Positions 2,216-52,513 of a stretch of 64,000 nucleotides of DNA are shown here, piece after piece (positions within the stretch are counted from its first letter, which is position 1; each line of letters starts with the position of its first letter). Under the pieces are notes generated by a model, which was given only the letters and a program-made list of their open reading frames with translations, searched no databases and was not told the origin of the DNA. The stretch is from an uncultured virus (IMG/VR IMGVR_UViG_3300032665_001598) (Duplodnaviria > Heunggongvirae > Uroviricota > Caudoviricetes). The DNA lies in the IMG/VR virus record IMGVR_UViG_3300032665_001598; one strand, 5' to 3'. The position numbers and the translations under genes were made by a program.

Positions 2216-2286
2216 TGTGGTGGTTTACTACTTAGATACAACTATTTATTAAGTAACCTGCTATTAATAAAATATTTAATTAACCA

Positions 2287-2315
2287 TTGACACAAATACA
2301 AAATTGTATTATACT
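2287..2315 (+). promoter_or_regulatory. sigma70-like promoter
   Basis: TTGACA-N17-TATACT upstream of the rpoZ-like gene and tRNAs. Confidence 0.75.
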
Positions 2316-2342
2316 AGCTACTTAATTAACTAAAGGAACAAA

Positions 2343-2570
2343 ATGTCAAAATATCACAGTCGTCATGAACACCTAGACGTGGAGAAATGCGTTAAAGAGT
2401 CCGGCGGTAATAAGTTTGAGTTGATTATTATGGCTGCTCAACGTGCCCGTGAAATTAAAGCAGGCAATTCACGTAGTATTCATATGGAACACCATCACGG
2501 TGTTATGACAGCATTGTTAGAAATTCAACACGGAAAAGTAGATCAAGAGTACTACAAAAAGATTAAATAA
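2343..2570 (+). CDS. rpoZ: RNA polymerase omega subunit-like protein
   Basis: VEKCV...GNKFELIIMAAQRAREI...ALLEIQHGKV matches the RpoZ pattern NRFeLv.vAa.RArql...AL.EI..Gk. Confidence 0.75.
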   Translation: MSKYHSRHEHLDVEKCVKESGGNKFELIIMAAQRAREIKAGNSRSIHMEHHHGVMTALLEIQHGKVDQEYYKKIK

Positions 2571-2577
2571 GTTTAAT

Positions 2578-2662
2578 GCGACTGTGGAGAAATTGGTATA
2601 CTCATCAGACTTAAAATCTGACGCTTCACGGCATGGCGGTTCAAGTCCGCCCAGTCGCACCA
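2578..2662 (+). tRNA. tRNA-Leu(TAA)
   Basis: Acceptor GCGACTG/CAGTCGC, anticodon arm TCAGA-CTTAAAA-TCTGA, long variable arm, GGTTCAAGTCC T arm, encoded CCA. Confidence 0.95.
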
Positions 2663-2678
2663 ATAATAAAGGGAAAGT

Positions 2679-2822
2679 ATGTCAAAGCAAAAAAATACAA
2701 TTGATCGAGCATACGGTAACATTCCTAAAGAAGTTGGTCCTGGCGATATATTCGACTGGTTCCCTACATACCGTGGTTTACGGTATTATTGGTATAAGTT
2801 AGTAAGACAAGTAACAAGATAA
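2679..2822 (+). CDS. small hypothetical protein (47 aa, MSKQKNTIDRAYG...)
   Basis: Translated by hand; purine-rich RBS AAAGGGAAAG; fills the gap between two tRNAs. Confidence 0.55.
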   Translation: MSKQKNTIDRAYGNIPKEVGPGDIFDWFPTYRGLRYYWYKLVRQVTR

Positions 2823-2829
2823 AAGTAAC

Positions 2830-2919
2830 GGAAGCGTGGCCGAGTGGCCGATGGCACCTGCCTACTAAGCAGGCATACGGGCAACTGTATCGTGAGTTCG
2901 AATCTCACCGCTTCCGCCA
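2830..2919 (+). tRNA. tRNA-Ser with anticodon ACT
   Basis: Acceptor GGAAGCG/CGCTTCC, G73 discriminator, long variable arm, anticodon arm CCTGC-CTACTAA-GCAGG, GTTCGAATC T loop, CCA. Confidence 0.9.
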
Positions 2920-2924
2920 AGTAG

Positions 2925-3178
2925 CAATAAGTTTGGGCATATGGTGTGGCGACCATCTGATACATGTGGGAGTATGAGTAACAGTCGTAGGACCGGCCCC
3001 GTGGCACTGATACTGCAATTTCGGATACTTCCGAGGGTACAAGTTATTTTAAAACTGTGAAAGTGTTGCTAGATCCCGTGAAAGAGCCTGCGAAGGCGAG
3101 CCTTATTGGTTGGGTAGCTCCCGACTGGCATTGCGGTCCACTGTCGAAAAGCAGATTTTAGTATGCCCAAATTTATTG
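2925..3178 (+). ncRNA. candidate structured non-coding RNA of unknown family (~254 nt)
   Basis: 17-bp terminal stem (2925-2941 with 3162-3178, one G-U), GGACCG/CGGTCC long-range helix, several internal hairpins, raised GC, no credible ORF. Confidence 0.7.
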
Positions 3179-3252
3179 ATATTTTGGTTATTTTATTCAG
3201 ATTCATAAATAATACTATACAATCGTATCACACGAAACTGGAGAATCCCCAA

Positions 3253-4236
3253 ATGAGTCAAACAACAAAAATCCGCTGGCTAATTGCACATGAACCTGTA
3301 AAGCTATTTTTACGTACAGCTGAAGCGTTTAGTGCTAAAATTGCTGAATTAACCGATGGCAAATTTGAAATAGAAATTTTCACACCATCCCATTATTTTG
3401 AGCAAGCTAAACTTACTGGCTACGAAAACAACCTAGGTAACTTTTACCGTGATAACGGTCCTATCATCGAAATGGAACAAGGCAACATTGAAATTAGCCA
3501 AGTTCATATTAATGAATTGGCCATGTGGTGTAATACAGATTTTTGGGCACTTGAAATGCCATTCTTATTTCGTGATCATGAACATGCAAGTCGCGTATTT
3601 GAAGGACCAATTGGTAAAGGCCTATTGGGTACTATTGAAGAAACAAGCCCGGCTAAAGGAATGGCATTTACTTACAGTGGCGGATTCCGTTGTGTAGTAT
3701 CAGAAACTCCGATCAACGACATTAGTGATATGAAGGGGTTAAGCTATGCAATTAATACAAATCCTGTAGCAGTTGATACTGTACTTGCACTTGGCGGTGT
3801 TCCTGAATCTTTCTCTATTAGAGATTATGTAAAGAAAGTTACAGAAGAAGGTTTTAATTCTACTCTTTTAGAAACAACTATTCCACGTTACCTAGCACAA
3901 TTCCAAGGTACAAATAAGAAGCATCTTATCAACACAAAACACAGTTTGTTCCTGACTAGTATTATTATCAGTAAAGCATTCTGGGAATCATTGGACGCAG
4001 TTGATCAAGCAGCGTTTGAAGAAGCAAGTATGTACGCAAGTCAATTAGAACGTCAATGGTCAGTTGACGACTCAGTTGAATTTGCTGCTAAAGATAATCA
4101 TGACGATATCGGTGTTACTTATCAAGAACTAAGTGATGTTGATACAGCTAAGTTCAAAGAACTAACTGCTCCCTTGTATGACAAATATCAACATTTCTTC
4201 CAACCTGGATTACTGGACGGTATTATCAAATCGTAA
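3253..4236 (+). CDS. TRAP transporter DctP-like solute-binding-fold protein
   Basis: ELTDGKFEIEIF, LEMPFLFRD.EH, GGFR, DMKGL, FWESL motifs typical of DctP; ATG 3253 follows GGAG. Confidence 0.8.
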   Translation: MSQTTKIRWLIAHEPVKLFLRTAEAFSAKIAELTDGKFEIEIFTPSHYFEQAKLTGYENNLGNFYRDNGPIIEMEQGNIEISQVHINELAMWCNTDFWALEMPFLFRDHEHASRVFEGPIGKGLLGTIEETSPAKGMAFTYSGGFRCVVSETPINDISDMKGLSYAINTNPVAVDTVLALGGVPESFSIRDYVKKVTEEGFNSTLLETTIPRYLAQFQGTNKKHLINTKHSLFLTSIIISKAFWESLDAVDQAAFEEASMYASQLERQWSVDDSVEFAAKDNHDDIGVTYQELSDVDTAKFKELTAPLYDKYQHFFQPGLLDGIIKS

Positions 4237-4776: not shown

Positions 4777-4852
4777 GCCCTTATAGCTCAGCTGGTAGAG
4801 CGCAACATTTGTAATGCTGATGTCCCGTGTTCGAATCATGGTGGGGGCACCA
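4777..4852 (+). tRNA. tRNA-Thr(TGT)
   Basis: 76-nt cloverleaf, TAGCTCAGCTGGTAGAGC D arm, anticodon loop TTTGTAA, GTTCGAATC, CCA; TTGACA-N17-TACAAT promoter at 4737-4765. Confidence 0.92.
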
Positions 4853-42351: not shown

Positions 42352-42659
42352 GACGCATTTCTTTTATGCTTATGATGCTGATTGCTGGCACCGGAATGGC
42401 AGCCGGTTTACAACAGTTGATAGACAGCGTTAAAAAACCTCCTGCAACTGCGCCGCAACCTCGACCACTTAGTGCGCCACCACAGGCACCTAAGCCGTTA
42501 CCGACCCCAATACTGGCTCCTAAATCTGCACCACCGACGGCGGTAGCACCCAAGCCTGCTGCACCCGTGCCCACAACAACCAACCCAACAAATTCTAATA
42601 ACCCTACCACAGATAACAACAAAACTTGTAGTCCAACAGATTCAATGTGTAAAAGGTAA
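42348..42659 (+). CDS. secreted Pro/Thr-rich protein
   Basis: Signal-like N-terminus; ATGA coupling. Confidence 0.6.
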   Translation: MRRISFMLMMLIAGTGMAAGLQQLIDSVKKPPATAPQPRPLSAPPQAPKPLPTPILAPKSAPPTAVAPKPAAPVPTTTNPTNSNNPTTDNNKTCSPTDSMCKR

Positions 42660-42661
42660 CT

Positions 42662-42786
42662 ATGGCATATTCAGACAAAGAAATAATATACAATTTATTA
42701 AAGGTGAAGAAAATCGTAAGAAGTGGGATAGCTATCAACCCACTGATGTAGTAAAATCTATATTAGGAGACAAATATGTCCTATAG
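42662..42786 (+). pseudogene. orphan iscU 5' end (MAYSDK) fused to the 3' remnant of a probable HNH homing endonuclease
   Basis: 42662-42679 encode MAYSDK; 42682-42786 encode NNIQFIKGEENRKKWD...VL* in another frame, resembling an HNH C-terminal N.Q.....EN..K element. Confidence 0.55.
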
Positions 42787-43155
42787 TGCAAAGGTCATTG
42801 ACCATTATGAAAATCCCAGAAATGTTGGGAAATTAGAGGAGACAGCGCAAGTTGGGACCGGTGTAGTTGGTGCCCCAGCTTGCGGATGACCGGAGATGTT
42901 ATGCGGTTACAAATAAAGGTAGTAGATGGGATTATTGTAGATGCAAAATTTAAAACTTACGGATGTGGATCTGCCATTGCCAGCTCGAGTCTGGTCACGG
43001 AATGGGTTAAAGGCAAAACGCTCGACTCCGCAATGGAAATTAAAAATTCTGAGATTGCACAAGAGTTGGCGCTCCCGCCTGTTAAAATCCACTGTAGCAT
43101 CTTGGCCGAAGATGCAATCAAAGCGGCTGTAGCGGATTACAGAAGTAAACACTAG
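42776..43155 (+). CDS. iscU: Fe-S scaffold IscU, interrupted by an 8-nt element containing TGA
   Basis: MSYSAKVIDHYENPRNVG...GAPACG* (42776-42889) then GDVMRLQIKV...FKTYGCGSAIAS...LPPVKIHCSILAEDA in the -1 frame. Confidence 0.9.
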
Positions 43156-43165
43156 GGGATAAATT

Positions 43166-43357
43166 ATGACACAAATCAATGTTGATATTGCAGTTCAATC
43201 GTGGTGCCCATTGGAACATACACCATACGAAGGTTTCTGCCTTGGAGATTTTCATAATATTTGGAAACGACCAGCAGAACCGTGTAAACATTCCGACCAA
43301 TGCTCGGAGCTTAAAGCAGTATTAGAATCGTATGATAACGAAAATCGAAGCCATTGA
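43166..43357 (+). CDS. small Cys-containing hypothetical protein
   Basis: GGGG RBS; lies between iscU and iscA. Confidence 0.55.
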   Translation: MTQINVDIAVQSWCPLEHTPYEGFCLGDFHNIWKRPAEPCKHSDQCSELKAVLESYDNENRSH

Positions 43358-48296: not shown

Positions 48297-50618
48297 ATGA
48301 CGACAATTCAAGTCACAAAAAGAAGTGGACAAAAAGAACCGCTCGCAGTAGAGAAGTGGCAAGCCCAGATTACTAAGGTTTGTGCAGGCATAGCGGACGT
48401 AAGTCAAAGTATGATTGAAATCAAAAGTCAACCACACTTTTATGATGGCATTACAACAAAAGAAATAGATGAAATTACATTACGAGCGATTGTAGACTTA
48501 ATCGACGTAGAAGCAAATCCCGATGTTGGGCACGTTAACTATCAATACGTAGCAGGCAAACAGCGTTTGTCGATGTTACGCAAGGATGTTTATGGCGACT
48601 ACGAGCCTCCTCGCCTGTATGACATTGTAAAGACAAATGTAGCAACAGGTCTTTACACAGATGAATTATTATCTTGGTACACCGAAGAAGAGTGGGACAA
48701 GATGGATGCTATGTTAGATCACAGCAAAGATGAACTATACAGTTATGCCGCTATTGAACAGCTAATTGAAAAATATCTAGTACGTAATCGCGCTACAAAG
48801 GAAACATATGAAACTCCACAAATTCGTTACATGGTTGCAGCCGCTACTGTCTTCCACAAAGAAGAACCTAGTAGTGCCCGTTTGCGCTACATCAAAGAAT
48901 ACTACAATGCGGCGAGTGACGGCCTTTTTACTCTTGCTACTCCTGTACTCGCTGGTCTGGGTACTCCTACAAAACAATTTTCGTCCTGTGTACTTATCCG
49001 CTCTGATGACGATCTTGATTCTATCTTTGCTTCTGGAGAGATGATGGCCAAGTATGCCAGCAAACGTGCAGGCATTGGTTTAGAAATTGGTCGCTTACGT
49101 CCATTAGGATCGCCTATACGTGGCGGCGAAATTATGCATACTGGAATGATTCCATTCTTAAAGAAGTGGTTTGGGGACTTACGTTCATGTTCACAAGGTG
49201 GCATTCGTAACGCAAGTGCAACAGTATTTTATCCTATTTGGCATCATCAATTTGATGACCTAATTGTATTAAAGAACAATCAAGGCACAGACGAAACACG
49301 TGTACGTTTTATGGACTATGGTGTTGTACTAAGTGCCCTGTTCTGGCGTCGTTTCAAGAACAAAGAAAACATTACCTTCTTTGATCCAAATGAAGTTCCT
49401 GATTTATATCAAGCATTCTATAGCAATATTGAACTATTTGAAGACTTATATGTCAAGTACGAAAAGCGTACCGACCTACGTAAGAAAACAATGTCAGCTG
49501 AAGAAGTATTCAAAGGCGGCATCTTAAAAGAACGTACAGACACAGGGCGTATCTATCTTGTGTTTATTGATAACGTACAAAAGCAAGGACCGTTTGATCC
49601 AGAGTATCATACTATCTATCAATCGAACTTGTGCTGTGAAATTCTATTACCAACTAAATCCTTTAAACGCTTAGATGACGAAGAAGGCCGTATTGCATTA
49701 TGTACACTAGGTAGTATTAACTGGGGTGCTTTCCGTAATCCAGAAGATATGCGCCGTGCGTGTCGCATCTTACATCGCAGTCTTAACAATATTTTGGACT
49801 ATCAAGATTTCTTGAGTATTCAAAGTAAACTAAGCAACGATGAAATTCGTCCGTTAGGCATTGGTATTACTAACTTGGCTTATTGGCATGCTAAACGCAG
49901 TTATAAGTATGGCGAGAAAGATGCCCTACATGATGTTAAGTCGTGGATGGAACATCAAGCCTACTACTTAACTGAAGCAAGTGTTGAGTTAGCCAAGGAA
50001 CGTGGCGCTTGTGTAGATTCTGCTCGAACACGTTATGGCCAAGGCGTCTTCCCGTGGGAGTTACGTGCCGAGGGTGTAAATCAATTAACAGACTTTACTC
50101 CTGAGCTAGATTGGGAAACACTAAGAACCAACATGAAACAATATGGTGTGCGTAATGCCACCCAGATGGCAGTTGCCCCAGTTGAGTCCAGTAGTGTTGT
50201 TATTAATTCTACCAACGGTATTGAAATGCCAATGAGTTTAATTAGTACCAAAGAATCAAAAGCAGGTTCACTTACACAGGTTGTTCCTGAATATGCTAAG
50301 TTGAAAAACAAATATCAATTGATGTGGGAACAGAAAGACTGTGACGCATACTTAAAGACAGCGGCAGTTATTGCGGCCTATGTTGATCAAAGTATTAGTA
50401 CAAATACTTTCTACAATCCAGCACACTGGGCAGATCGTAAAGTACCAACTACATTAATTGCAAAGAATTTAATGCAAGCGCACGTTTGGGGTCTGAAAAC
50501 CTTCTATTATAGCCTCGTGAATAAACAGGGTGCTAAAGCGGATGCCGAAGAGGCACCCGCTATGTTAGAAGCTGTTGATTTTGATGATGAAGCCGATTGC
50601 GAATCTTGTAAACTTTAG
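48297..50618 (+). CDS. nrdA: ribonucleotide reductase class Ia alpha subunit
   Basis: N-terminal ATP cone (VTKRSG), QFSSCV, SNLCCEI, GLKTFYY, C-terminal CESCKL. Confidence 0.96.
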   Translation: MTTIQVTKRSGQKEPLAVEKWQAQITKVCAGIADVSQSMIEIKSQPHFYDGITTKEIDEITLRAIVDLIDVEANPDVGHVNYQYVAGKQRLSMLRKDVYGDYEPPRLYDIVKTNVATGLYTDELLSWYTEEEWDKMDAMLDHSKDELYSYAAIEQLIEKYLVRNRATKETYETPQIRYMVAAATVFHKEEPSSARLRYIKEYYNAASDGLFTLATPVLAGLGTPTKQFSSCVLIRSDDDLDSIFASGEMMAKYASKRAGIGLEIGRLRPLGSPIRGGEIMHTGMIPFLKKWFGDLRSCSQGGIRNASATVFYPIWHHQFDDLIVLKNNQGTDETRVRFMDYGVVLSALFWRRFKNKENITFFDPNEVPDLYQAFYSNIELFEDLYVKYEKRTDLRKKTMSAEEVFKGGILKERTDTGRIYLVFIDNVQKQGPFDPEYHTIYQSNLCCEILLPTKSFKRLDDEEGRIALCTLGSINWGAFRNPEDMRRACRILHRSLNNILDYQDFLSIQSKLSNDEIRPLGIGITNLAYWHAKRSYKYGEKDALHDVKSWMEHQAYYLTEASVELAKERGACVDSARTRYGQGVFPWELRAEGVNQLTDFTPELDWETLRTNMKQYGVRNATQMAVAPVESSSVVINSTNGIEMPMSLISTKESKAGSLTQVVPEYAKLKNKYQLMWEQKDCDAYLKTAAVIAAYVDQSISTNTFYNPAHWADRKVPTTLIAKNLMQAHVWGLKTFYYSLVNKQGAKADAEEAPAMLEAVDFDDEADCESCKL

Positions 50619-50661: not shown

Positions 50662-51429
50662 ATGGATTATAAAAAACATTACAATTTATTAATTGAGCGT
50701 AGCCGTGATAGAATATTAGATGGGTATGTTGAAAAACACCATATTACTCCAAGATGTTTAGGCGGAACAGACGATAGAAATAATATTGCTATCCTAACCC
50801 CGGAAGAACACTTTTTAGCACACCAACTGTTAATTAAGATACATCCGGGGAACAGAGATTTAGTTTATGCAACTCAATTGATGACAACACATCATACAGA
50901 AGCAAGAATAAACAATAAACTATTTGGATGGTTAAGAAAACAATGTGCATTAGCAATGTCTACACAAACAAAGAATTGGCAAGCAATAAACGGACACCCT
51001 AAGGGGTTTCTTGGTAAAAAGCATAATATAGAAGATCTTGATCGAATTACGTCGGGACTAAAGAAAACGGCTGTTGAAAAAAGAGTAGAAGTATATTCGT
51101 ATAATCTTGATGGATCATTCCATAAAAAATACGAGTCGCTAATAGAGTGTGCAAAAGATTTACAAACTAATGCATCTAATGTAAAATATACAGCAGAAGG
51201 CAAATTTGGTCATTGCAAACAAAAACAACTCAGATACGAGTTCACTGATAGTATTAGTCCGTACGTTAAACTATCGCCGTTAAAGGGTAAGAAGAAAACA
51301 GAAGAACATAAGCAAAATCAGAGTAAAGCAATGAAGGGCAGAAAAAGAACAGTAGAACAAAATGCCAACCATAGTTTGAAAATGAAAGCATATCACAGAG
51401 AAAAAAATAATGTCAAAACAACAATATGA
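50662..51429 (+). mobile_element. free-standing HNH homing endonuclease between nrdA and nrdB
   Basis: EKHHITPRCLGG.DD..N...LTPEEHFLAH; NUMOD-like C-terminal repeats; overlaps the nrdB start. Confidence 0.88.
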
Positions 51430-52513
51430 TTTAAGCAAACCAACCAACTATTTAAAACGAACAATGTTTTTAGATCCAGCCGGGCCAGTAACTATTCAAC
51501 GTTTTGAAGAAGTACGTTATCCTAAAATTGCAGACTTTGAAGCTACAGCACGTGGCTTCTTTTGGCAACCAGAAGAGATTAGTCTAACTAAAGACAGCAA
51601 CGACTTTAAAGATGCGTCTGATGCAGTTAAGCATATCTTCACAAGTAACTTGCTACGCCAAACAGCCTTAGACAGTTTACAAGGACGTGGACCTACACAA
51701 GTGTTTACACCTGTGTGTTCATTGCCGGAAGTTGAAGCCTTAATGTATAACTGGGGATTCTTCGAAACAAACATTCATAGTAAATCATACAGTCATATTA
51801 TTCGTAATATCTACAACGTGCCAAAGGATGTGTTTAACACTATCCACGATACTAAAGAAATTGTAGACATGGCGAGTAGTGTAGGCAACTACTATGATCA
51901 ACTACATAAAATTAACTGTGCTAAAGAACTAGGGGATACCAATGTCTCAGAAACACATCACATCAAAGCAATTTGGATGGCCTTACATGCCAGTTACGCA
52001 TTAGAAGCATTCCGCTTTATGGTATCGTTTGCTACAAGTTTGGCCATGGTTGAGAATCGTATCTTTATGGGCAATGGTAATATTATTAGCCTAATCCTAC
52101 AAGACGAGTTGTTGCACAAAGGTTGGACAGCTTACTTGATCAATCAGGTAATCAAAGATGACGCACGTTTTGCCGCTATCAAAGGCGAATGTGAAGCAGA
52201 AGTTTATCAGTTATACATGGATGTTATCCGTGAGGAGAAAGAATGGGCTACCTACTTGTTCAAGATGGGTCCTGTGATTGGTTTAAATGCCAATATCCTT
52301 AAGGATTTCGTTGATTATACCGCAGTTGGTGCACTAAAAGACATCGGTATCAAGTATCAGGCATCAGCACCTAAGACCACGCCTATTCCATGGTTCAACA
52401 AGCATACAGATACAAGTAAAAAGCAAACAGCTCTACAAGAATCAGAGAGTACGTCCTACGTCATTGGTGTTATGAGTGACGCAATTGACTACAACGAGTT
52501 ACCGAGTTTATAA
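51410..52513 (+). CDS. nrdB: ribonucleotide reductase class Ia beta subunit
   Basis: FFWQPEEI, QTALDS.QGR, ETNIHSKSY, LEAFRF, DELLH. Confidence 0.95.
   Translation: MSKQQYDLSKPTNYLKRTMFLDPAGPVTIQRFEEVRYPKIADFEATARGFFWQPEEISLTKDSNDFKDASDAVKHIFTSNLLRQTALDSLQGRGPTQVFTPVCSLPEVEALMYNWGFFETNIHSKSYSHIIRNIYNVPKDVFNTIHDTKEIVDMASSVGNYYDQLHKINCAKELGDTNVSETHHIKAIWMALHASYALEAFRFMVSFATSLAMVENRIFMGNGNIISLILQDELLHKGWTAYLINQVIKDDARFAAIKGECEAEVYQLYMDVIREEKEWATYLFKMGPVIGLNANILKDFVDYTAVGALKDIGIKYQASAPKTTPIPWFNKHTDTSKKQTALQESESTSYVIGVMSDAIDYNELPSL

Follow-up and report, generated by a model that had tools for sequence, protein, structure and literature searches.

A stop-led insert in the iscU gene of an uncultured lake phage, a candidate site of ribosome hopping linked to an HNH-like open reading frame

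Can an iscU gene that is cut by a stop codon inside its PACGD motif still be translated into one chain? The question is raised by a 64,000-nucleotide stretch of DNA from an uncultured virus of the Caudoviricetes (IMG/VR record IMGVR_UViG_3300032665_001598), here called the window, whose iscU gene is interrupted by GGA-TGA-CC-GGA. A first-pass annotation of the same DNA had proposed either a minimal programmed hop of the ribosome or a gene split into two chains. Comparison with related phage loci favours the hop: the ribosome probably passes from the first GGA to the second over UGA-CC, and the bases skipped would belong to an element spread by a homing endonuclease, of which the window would hold a copy that has lost its nuclease.

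The interrupted iscU gene and its relatives

The features of the locus are listed below in order of position.

42662..42680, + strand: remnant of an older iscU 5' end (ATG and five codons, MAYSDK), 19/19 nucleotides identical to the start of the intact iscU of locus L001
42679..42771, + strand: 3' remnant of a putative HNH-like homing-endonuclease open reading frame (ORF), its last ~31 codons, without a start codon and dead (tblastn with the ORF of locus L015; in the alignment homology begins near 42679)
42776..42886, + strand: N half of iscU, codons 1-37 ending in PACG, cassette-borne (Pfam NifU_N profile 2-35; one N-half clade)
42846..42884, + strand: predicted RNA hairpin, 5' arm 42846-42861, 3' arm 42867-42871 and 42874-42884, ending on the first G of the take-off codon (folding and covariation)
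42884..42886, + strand: candidate take-off codon GGA (Gly); GGN precedes the inserted bases in 72/72 unique interrupted genes
42887..42891, + strand: putatively undecoded gap TGACC, made of the stop TGA (42887-42889) and CC, an 8-nucleotide shift from take-off to landing
42892..42894, + strand: candidate landing codon GGA (Gly); GGN precedes GAY in 71/72 unique interrupted genes
42895..43155, + strand: C part of iscU from GAT (Asp), an open frame matching Pfam NifU_N that keeps GCGS, LPPVK and HC and ends at TAG 43153-43155

Over positions 42884-42894 the junction (...GCT TGC GGA TGA CC GGA GAT GTT ATG CGG...) carries, letter by letter, the matched Gly codons and stop that the first-pass annotation had reported, in a gene that starts at ATG 42776. 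When the two sides were compared with Pfam NifU_N (PF01592), the 37-residue N part matched profile positions 2-35 (E-value 9.7e-11) and the part from 42892 matched positions 35-123 (E-value 5e-36). The halves meet at one profile position, so that deleting 8 nucleotides restores PACGD, as had been claimed. Together they span positions 2-123, and the joined product keeps PACGD, GCGS, LPPVK and HC, motifs whose residues we take to be the cluster ligands of IscU. A TAA lies 8 codons past the TGA in the zero frame, and simple readthrough of the window gene therefore fails, again in agreement with the earlier claim. The stop also overlaps ATG 42886 as ATGA, the stop/start overlap on which the proposal of a split gene had been built.

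The interruption of iscU in the window is genuine and is no assembly error. Contigs of three DNA runs span the junction and carry the 8 nucleotides with zero indels: one from run X1 (record 1) covers 42500-43128 with 0 differences, one from X7 (record 18) spans the whole stretch, and one from X20 (record 12), which comes from a separate study, covers 42821-42995 and shows 7 substitutions and no gaps. The source sample is possibly that of X1 and X7. Two IMG/VR contigs (L101 and L148) have halves identical to those of the window, and dozens of IMG/VR contigs of different sample origin have this junction or a sister one. Against this evidence, the chance that an assembly or sequencing error produced the interruption is negligible.

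Related phages are interrupted at the same place. Both halves were present in 78 of the best 80 of 592 confirmed C-half relatives among IMG/VR loci; 70 of these 78 were uninterrupted and 8 were interrupted at exactly the same spot, with four inserts among them (GGA TGA CT GGA, GGT TAG A GGA, GGT TAA C GGA and GGC TGA C GGC). A pattern scan requiring both Gly codons gave at least 120 loci, with 46 interrupted iscU genes among the matches listed. A looser scan, which fixed CCN GCN TGC and GAT GTA ATG A and allowed 4-20 bases of any kind in between, ran to completion with 66 loci, including 46 interrupted iscU genes. The arrangement GGN-stop-N0-4-GGN was present in 8/8 interrupted genes of the closest relatives and in 45/46 of the looser scan, the two samples drawn without a Gly requirement. 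All scans together gave 248 loci that could be parsed, with 154 unique genes, of which 82 are intact and 72 interrupted; the 72 show 26 junction types at one site, and 71 of them conform to GGN-stop-N0-4-GGN. Inserts of this form and of varying length, which the first-pass annotation had suggested looking for in related phages, are thus found. In a narrow pattern scan (TGC; D-V-M-K-L) across 185,579 bacterial and archaeal genomes there was a single match, which was not iscU, and in cultured phages iscU was found only as a distant intact copy in an Acinetobacter phage.

Variation at the junction is confined to particular bases. The filler and the third position of either Gly codon vary without restriction, and both GG doublets and the stop are invariant in 71/72 genes; the G-D-V codons past the landing site vary only synonymously (GAT/GAC and GTT/GTC/GTA/GTG). 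The codons of take-off and landing are identical or wobble-compatible in 40 of 71 pairs, as they are in the window (GGA/GGA). The shift from take-off to landing measures 6 nucleotides in 2 genes, 7 in 38, 8 in 20, 9 in 10 and 10 in 2, and the stop is TGA in 37 genes, TAG in 19 and TAA in 15, with 1 exception. An altered genetic code was rejected because all three stops occur at the junction. All three frames are likewise represented, in-frame 9-nucleotide inserts included, so that no single type of frameshift explains the inserts.

Each length class could, however, be rescued by a recoding event of its own: a -1 or +2 frameshift for 8 nucleotides, a +1 frameshift for 7, and readthrough for 6 and 9. 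Formally one such event suffices for every class, and frameshifting is known to be stimulated by a stop codon in the A site. In the window a -1 frameshift would yield PACG-MTG-DVMR, with the peptide ...GAPACGMTGDVMR. This explanation would require three or four mechanisms for one homologous element that varies freely in length. No slippery sequence is present: neither CGG nor GAU offers new pairing to a tRNA-Gly on GGA. Within the invariant PACGD the products would also gain 2-3 residues. What is known to stimulate -1 frameshifting sits downstream of the shift site, not upstream. We therefore give very little credence to separate recoding of each class.

The hairpin, the cassette and their surroundings

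The 16-pair hairpin of the window extends to the take-off codon's first G, with a minimum free energy of -22.6 kcal/mol and a z-score of -3.09. Among 23 distinct interrupted sequences 95.7% of cells in the alignment were paired, compared with a shuffle mean of 89.1% and 29-41% in slid controls, and covariation as strong as that observed was reached in 0/500 shuffles. The same columns of 66 intact genes were 56.3% paired, against a shuffle mean of 56.8%. Pair 12-42, for example, is AU in 12 sequences, CG in 7, UA in 3 and GC in 1, with none unpaired, and a Gln/His change that faces an Ala codon's third base preserves it. When the comparison is limited to genes preceded by the HNH-like ORF, 14-16 of the 16 positions are paired in 34 insert-bearing haplotypes and 6-12 in 12 insert-less ones. 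This division within the ORF-bearing genes indicates that the hairpin goes with the insert and not with the nuclease; invariant G-U pairs, moreover, point to RNA of the sense strand.

The first-pass annotation had placed the stop itself in a small CGG-ATGA-CCG hairpin. That claim did not hold up: the stem has 3 base pairs only and is lost in the 7-, 9- and 10-nucleotide junction types, and no conserved stem-loop enclosing take-off codon and stop was found. A stem predicted downstream of the junction in the window was rejected because it rests on the CGG codon, whose third base is variable in L015, L020 and L028. The mean folding z-score of the region from -30 to +30 did not separate interrupted from intact genes (0.10 versus -0.94), the signal appearing only when the upstream arm was included.

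To delimit the element, the two halves of iscU were compared in separate trees of 115 tips. These were built from a de-duplicated first set of 53 interrupted and 68 intact unique genes, which also served for the ORF counts below; rows that were too short or contained stops were dropped, leaving 47 of the 53 interrupted genes and the 68 intact ones. In the N-half tree the 47 interrupted genes group together in a single clade (support 0.959), and 1 Fitch change accounts for them, compared with a mean of 36.6 and a minimum of 28 after shuffling. The same genes require 21 changes in the C-half tree. Pairs of loci tell the same story: L020 and L028 have an identity of 1.00 in the ORF and in the N half and of 0.81 and 0.75 in the C half, and for L050 and L158 the values are 0.98 (ORF), 0.99 (N half), and 0.42 and 0.37 (C half). 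Since the N halves form one clade and the C halves are scattered, the right end of the cassette lies at the gap.

Older 5' ends of iscU persist as remnants upstream of the HNH-like ORF in L299 (29 codons), L304 and L333, and in the window such a start remnant is fused to the nuclease remnant. The element thus landed in a resident iscU and brought its own codons 1-37, with the insert as its right edge. Judged from the sequences, it lands in the DNA of the invariant PACGD motif and spreads between phages. The full cassette comprises the HNH-like gene, replacement iscU codons 1-37 with their hairpin, and the short stop-led insert. The window copy is a decayed, nuclease-less relic, which keeps a 93-nucleotide remnant of the nuclease and, undamaged, the hairpin, the stop and both the take-off and the landing codon.

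The upstream ORF of interrupted loci has ~200 residues and ends out of frame inside the start of iscU, with an overlap of 8-32 nucleotides in most loci and a 6-nucleotide spacer instead in L133. In the de-duplicated set the ORF or a remnant of it lies upstream of 0/68 intact genes; of the 53 interrupted genes, 27 have it in full and 7 as a remnant, while in 4 it is partly visible, in 11 missing and in 4 unclear. The remnant in the window (42667-42771) aligns with residues 162-196 of the L015 ORF at 77% identity (tblastn, E-value 1e-13). Locus L082, which has the same junction as the window, carries the ORF at full length. A search that started from the ORF found 134 relatives, of which 80 were kept, and all 77 homologues with room downstream (77/77) sit directly before iscU. 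Those without an insert differ in the motif region, reading for example APSCGDVL or SPACGD. At 12 loci (L281, L286, L294, L297, L299, L304, L312, L323, L328, L333, L334 and L337) the HNH-like ORF precedes an uninterrupted iscU without the hairpin; these may show the locus as it was before it gained the gap, protected by substitutions.

Seven residues are invariant in the ORF (D145, H146, P149, N168, N177, R178 and K180), within the motif DH..P...N...N.R.KW. The family comprises 464 clusters at an E-value of <= 0.001, and for 2 of the 120 clusters listed a source names McrA. Foldseek returned no significant match for the ORF, and an ORF profile run against PDB sequences gave nothing meaningful. 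When the ORF was compared with 50,697 phage records by tblastn, 3 weak matches were obtained, none annotated as MobA, and no T4-type relative of it turned up among these cultured phages; a direct comparison with gene 60 was not made. From its motif and predicted structure the ORF is probably an HNH-type homing endonuclease, a weak assignment. A stretch of ~35 nucleotides right before the ATG of the ORF is conserved in L015 (2293 region) and 11 other loci, with the consensus ...GGGTGCGCCAAGA..TAAATACTTGT; it could serve the ORF as a promoter or for ribosome binding, or mark the element's left end.

A second in-frame insert, in the LPPVK motif, was first seen in one locus, and a scan for it gave 17 loci (L347-L363, e.g. 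L347:1147-1226). All matches (17/17) are iscU genes that read L-P-P-stop-(L/P)-V-K, in the forms CCN TAA/TAG CTN GTN, such as CCG TAA CTA GTT in L347, and, once, CCG TAA CCG. A hairpin of its own ends next to the take-off codon here too, 98.7% paired with compensatory changes in the insert-bearing genes and 44.5% paired in 71 insert-less genes. Downstream, between iscU and iscA, a DUF559/Vsr-like ORF is present at 8/14 insert-bearing loci and at 1/134 loci without the insert. By sequence, the LPPVK site looks like an independent replicate in which a different nuclease is paired with the same design of hairpin, stop and landing codon. A hop over the LPPVK insert, if there is one, would bring tRNA-Pro down on CUN, with G-U as the middle pair. 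In the window the LPPVK site (43068-43094) is uninterrupted.

An intein-like insert of ~1 kb was observed at the second Cys motif (KTYGC|LTSNAPV...) in L271, L272 (about 2283-3292) and L299-L303 (about 2311-3263); in L271 and L272 it coexists with the 8-nucleotide gap. With inserts at PACGD, at the second Cys motif and at LPPVK, selfish elements occupy all three cluster-ligand motifs of iscU.

The window belongs to a large lake-water phage with genes for GroEL, RNR, a DnaB-type helicase, a primase and several radical-SAM proteins. Its iscA gene lies just downstream of iscU, and between the two is a Cys-rich ORF of 63 residues (43166-43357, + strand) with no Pfam match. Another ORF of 255 residues (50662-51429, + strand), flanked by nrdA (48297-50618) and nrdB (51410-52513), matches Pfam HNH below threshold (E-value 0.0053); in T4 this is the place of the free-standing nuclease mobE. 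Three tRNA genes were found in the window, Leu-TAA (2578-2662), Ser-ACT (2830-2919) and Thr-TGT (4777-4852), and no tRNA-Gly gene.

Hop, split or scar

The hop that we favour would proceed as follows. By breaking the target site of its own nuclease, the insert would protect the phage that carries it. A ribosome reading iscU would then stall with peptidyl-tRNA-Gly on GGA and a stop in poor context, UGA-C, in the A site; the tRNA would release, and the mRNA would slip 8 nucleotides forward to the landing GGA. Given the usual size of the ribosome footprint, a ribosome with GGA in its P site should enclose the 3' arm of the hairpin and leave the 5' arm outside. The hairpin, by refolding in the wake of the ribosome, would aid forward movement, the role also proposed for the 5' stem-loop of gene 60 (Manning & Atkins, bioRxiv 10.1101/2022.08.31.505936; Wills et al. 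preprint). The parallel with T4 gene 60 and mobA that the first-pass annotation drew is borne out by the linked upstream HNH-like ORF, the Gly-stop-Gly inserts at the same site and the hairpin abutting the take-off codon.

If the gene were split instead, the stop would release a peptide of 37 residues, and a second chain would start by coupling or re-initiation at ATG 42886 (MTGDVMR...) or at the Met of D-V-M, which would leave the Cys ligands on two polypeptides. Genes cut into functional pieces by homing endonucleases are known, examples being the MobA-split topoisomerase and nrdA/MobE (bioRxiv 10.1101/2022.08.31.505936). The start codons at the iscU junction do not follow one plan, however. 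Among the 71 conforming genes no start codon common to all junction types was found for the C piece, nor is there a common spacing: 13/71 have no in-frame start upstream of the landing codon, GTG stands at +2 in 5/71, and 6/71 have no ATG, GTG or TTG within 30 codons downstream. Nine insert haplotypes read D-V-L and so lack the Met altogether. A split would also leave unexplained the landing GGN and the synonymous-only change of GAY GTN where no start precedes, as well as a hairpin that covaries only in insert-bearing genes, and the C- or N-terminal extension tails (CTE/NTE) of the MobA and MobE splits are missing. Of the two alternatives first proposed, the hop is thus favoured by the 71/72 rule, the linkage to the ORF and the covarying hairpin, and the split, weakened by the missing common start, appears unlikely.

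A dead gene was also considered. The insert might be a tolerated scar that protects against the nuclease and inactivates a dispensable auxiliary iscU, the intact look of the gene reflecting recent and repeated invasion. The first-pass annotation had argued from the absence of other decay that the gene is no pseudogene, and had proposed purifying selection on both halves as a check. Values of dN/dS (nonsynonymous to synonymous divergence) are indeed low in both halves (0.04-0.39). The C halves, however, are scattered among intact genes and diverge between near-identical cassettes; having been recently invaded, they owe their low dN/dS mostly to the time before the insert, and it says little about the time after. 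To that extent the argument from intactness is weaker than claimed. It is sustained by the N half, which travels with the cassette and has a pN/pS (the corresponding ratio for polymorphism) of 0.22 in codons 1-18 of interrupted genes, and by 15/16 genes whose nuclease is gone or reduced, which are still open over ~123 codons. The clade is, moreover, old enough for 26 junction types, yet the stop and both GGN codons are kept in all genes but one, and a covarying hairpin would not be expected to persist in a dead gene. We consider a scar quite improbable.

Several findings nevertheless weigh against a hop. In addition to the recent invasion of the C halves, the N half has a pN/pS about double the 0.10 of intact genes, as a scar would have it. 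An ATG two codons before the landing codon, in the ATGA overlap, is present in 17/71 conforming genes, the window included, and a Met lies in frame three codons past landing (D-V-M) in 60/71, so that re-initiation is possible in most; both are points in favour of a split. Of the take-off and landing pairs, 31/71 could not be read by one tRNA-Gly under standard wobble (GGT>GGA 22, GGA>GGT 7, GGA>GGC 1, GGG>GGT 1), and re-pairing in these would rest on two G-C pairs. One interrupted gene, L250 (GGT TGT TGA C GAT), is alone in having no landing Gly. The HNH-like ORF is followed by an insert-less iscU at 24/70 loci, which indicates that the nuclease does not need the insert, and its own identity is uncertain: Pfam HNH matches are sub-threshold in 7/14 ORFs (best E-value 0.0014), NUMOD3 is matched in 2/14, and the best structural matches in VIA-align, although HNH nucleases, have a Z of 3.8 or less. 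Unstimulated stop-hops in E. coli are inefficient. The sole RNA run (X21) covers 42500-42577 only, short of the junction.

In L250 (junction in the 1518-1565 region) the nuclease ORF appears intact, and the locus may be a dead copy, an error of sequencing or a different solution.

Meaning and comparison with known systems

Whether modules of hairpin, stop and hop are a general device of phage homing endonucleases we regard as evenly balanced. On that view two unrelated nuclease cassettes would each put a stop-led gap of 6-10 nucleotides into a cluster-ligand motif of iscU, the HNH-like one at the first Cys motif with tRNA-Gly (GGN to GGN) and the Vsr-like one at LPPVK-HC with tRNA-Pro (CCN to CUN). 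If the device is general, ordinary freshwater bacteria would have ribosomes that bypass efficiently given only a hairpin upstream, a weak stop and re-pairing through two G-C pairs, and many phage genes recorded as frameshifted would in fact be intact. Gene callers would mark such genes as broken or split, and here they would mislabel a probably working iron-sulfur scaffold gene. The iscU loci also form a natural mutant series, with five gap lengths, three stops, nine codon pairings and compensated hairpins, in which the minimal signals for a ribosome to slide can be tested. They support the idea that bypass gaps arise as self-protection of homing endonucleases whose target DNA is too conserved to vary. 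Literature searches found no publication on hopping or bypass in iscU or NifU; the supplements of the preprint, which lay outside the search, might name other genes.

To our knowledge, natural programmed bypassing in bacteria and phages has been tested at the bench only for T4 gene 60 and its homologues. The gene 60 coding gap and the MobA element are reportedly treated in Huang 1988 and Bonocora 2011. A 2022 preprint gives bypassing like that of gene 60 as unreported in other phages (bioRxiv 10.1101/2022.08.31.505936). It describes the MobA/gene 60 layout as a nuclease, an out-of-frame overlap, a homologous replacement region and a bypass cassette, and the nuclease as lost stepwise with the gap kept (Manning & Atkins, bioRxiv 10.1101/2022.08.31.505936). 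The iscU cassette likewise has an HNH-type ORF upstream, an out-of-frame overlap and its own copy of host-gene codons. Its gap, too, lies at an invariant Gly, with a Gly take-off followed by a stop, a Gly landing, a 5' stem-loop and stepwise loss of the nuclease.

The differences from gene 60 are as clear. That gap lies in a topoisomerase gene and measures 50 nucleotides (20 in one clade), whereas the host gene here is iscU and the gap 6-10 nucleotides, without a conserved stem-loop at the stop, room for an internal Shine-Dalgarno sequence or an evident special nascent peptide. The gene 60 family has only identical or wobble-compatible pairs of take-off and landing codons (bioRxiv 10.1101/2022.08.31.505936), unlike the 31 incompatible pairs of iscU, a contrast that adds to the points against a hop. 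In the MobA split there are two tailed working ORFs; the iscU nuclease is upstream of the functional copy, and only a decaying 5' remnant of the older gene is left. The iscU cassette appears unrelated to gene 60 and is much simpler.

It resembles stop-hopping in E. coli constructs, said to be the subject of Weiss 1987 and O'Connor 1989. There the P-site tRNA lets go when the A-site codon is slow and pairs again a few bases further along, in any frame, as we suppose for iscU. The 6-nucleotide forms (GGT TAG GGC and GGT TGA GGA, and CCG TAA CCG at the LPPVK site) have the exact geometry of a stop-hop, and low-level hopping in which 9 nucleotides specify one amino acid is reported for E. coli test constructs (bioRxiv 10.1101/2022.08.31.505936). 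The E. coli stop-hops are artificial and inefficient, whereas the iscU gap is natural, conserved across phages, linked to a mobile element and equipped with its own hairpin.

Two further systems share parts of this arrangement. The byp elements of Magnusiomyces capitatus are mobile inserts in essential genes that are tolerated through bypassing (bioRxiv 10.1101/2022.08.31.505936), as the iscU insert would be. They differ in being 27-55 nucleotides long, in residing in yeast mitochondria without a nuclease gene, and in stalling the ribosome on a sense codon that lacks a tRNA and not on a stop. In nrdA/MobE of phage Aeh1 a free-standing nuclease disrupts a conserved gene whose function is kept (bioRxiv 10.1101/2022.08.31.505936), which is the likeness to iscU. 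There, however, the nuclease stands between two tailed ORFs whose products form a complex, whereas the break in iscU is a few bases long, with no tails and no common start codon.

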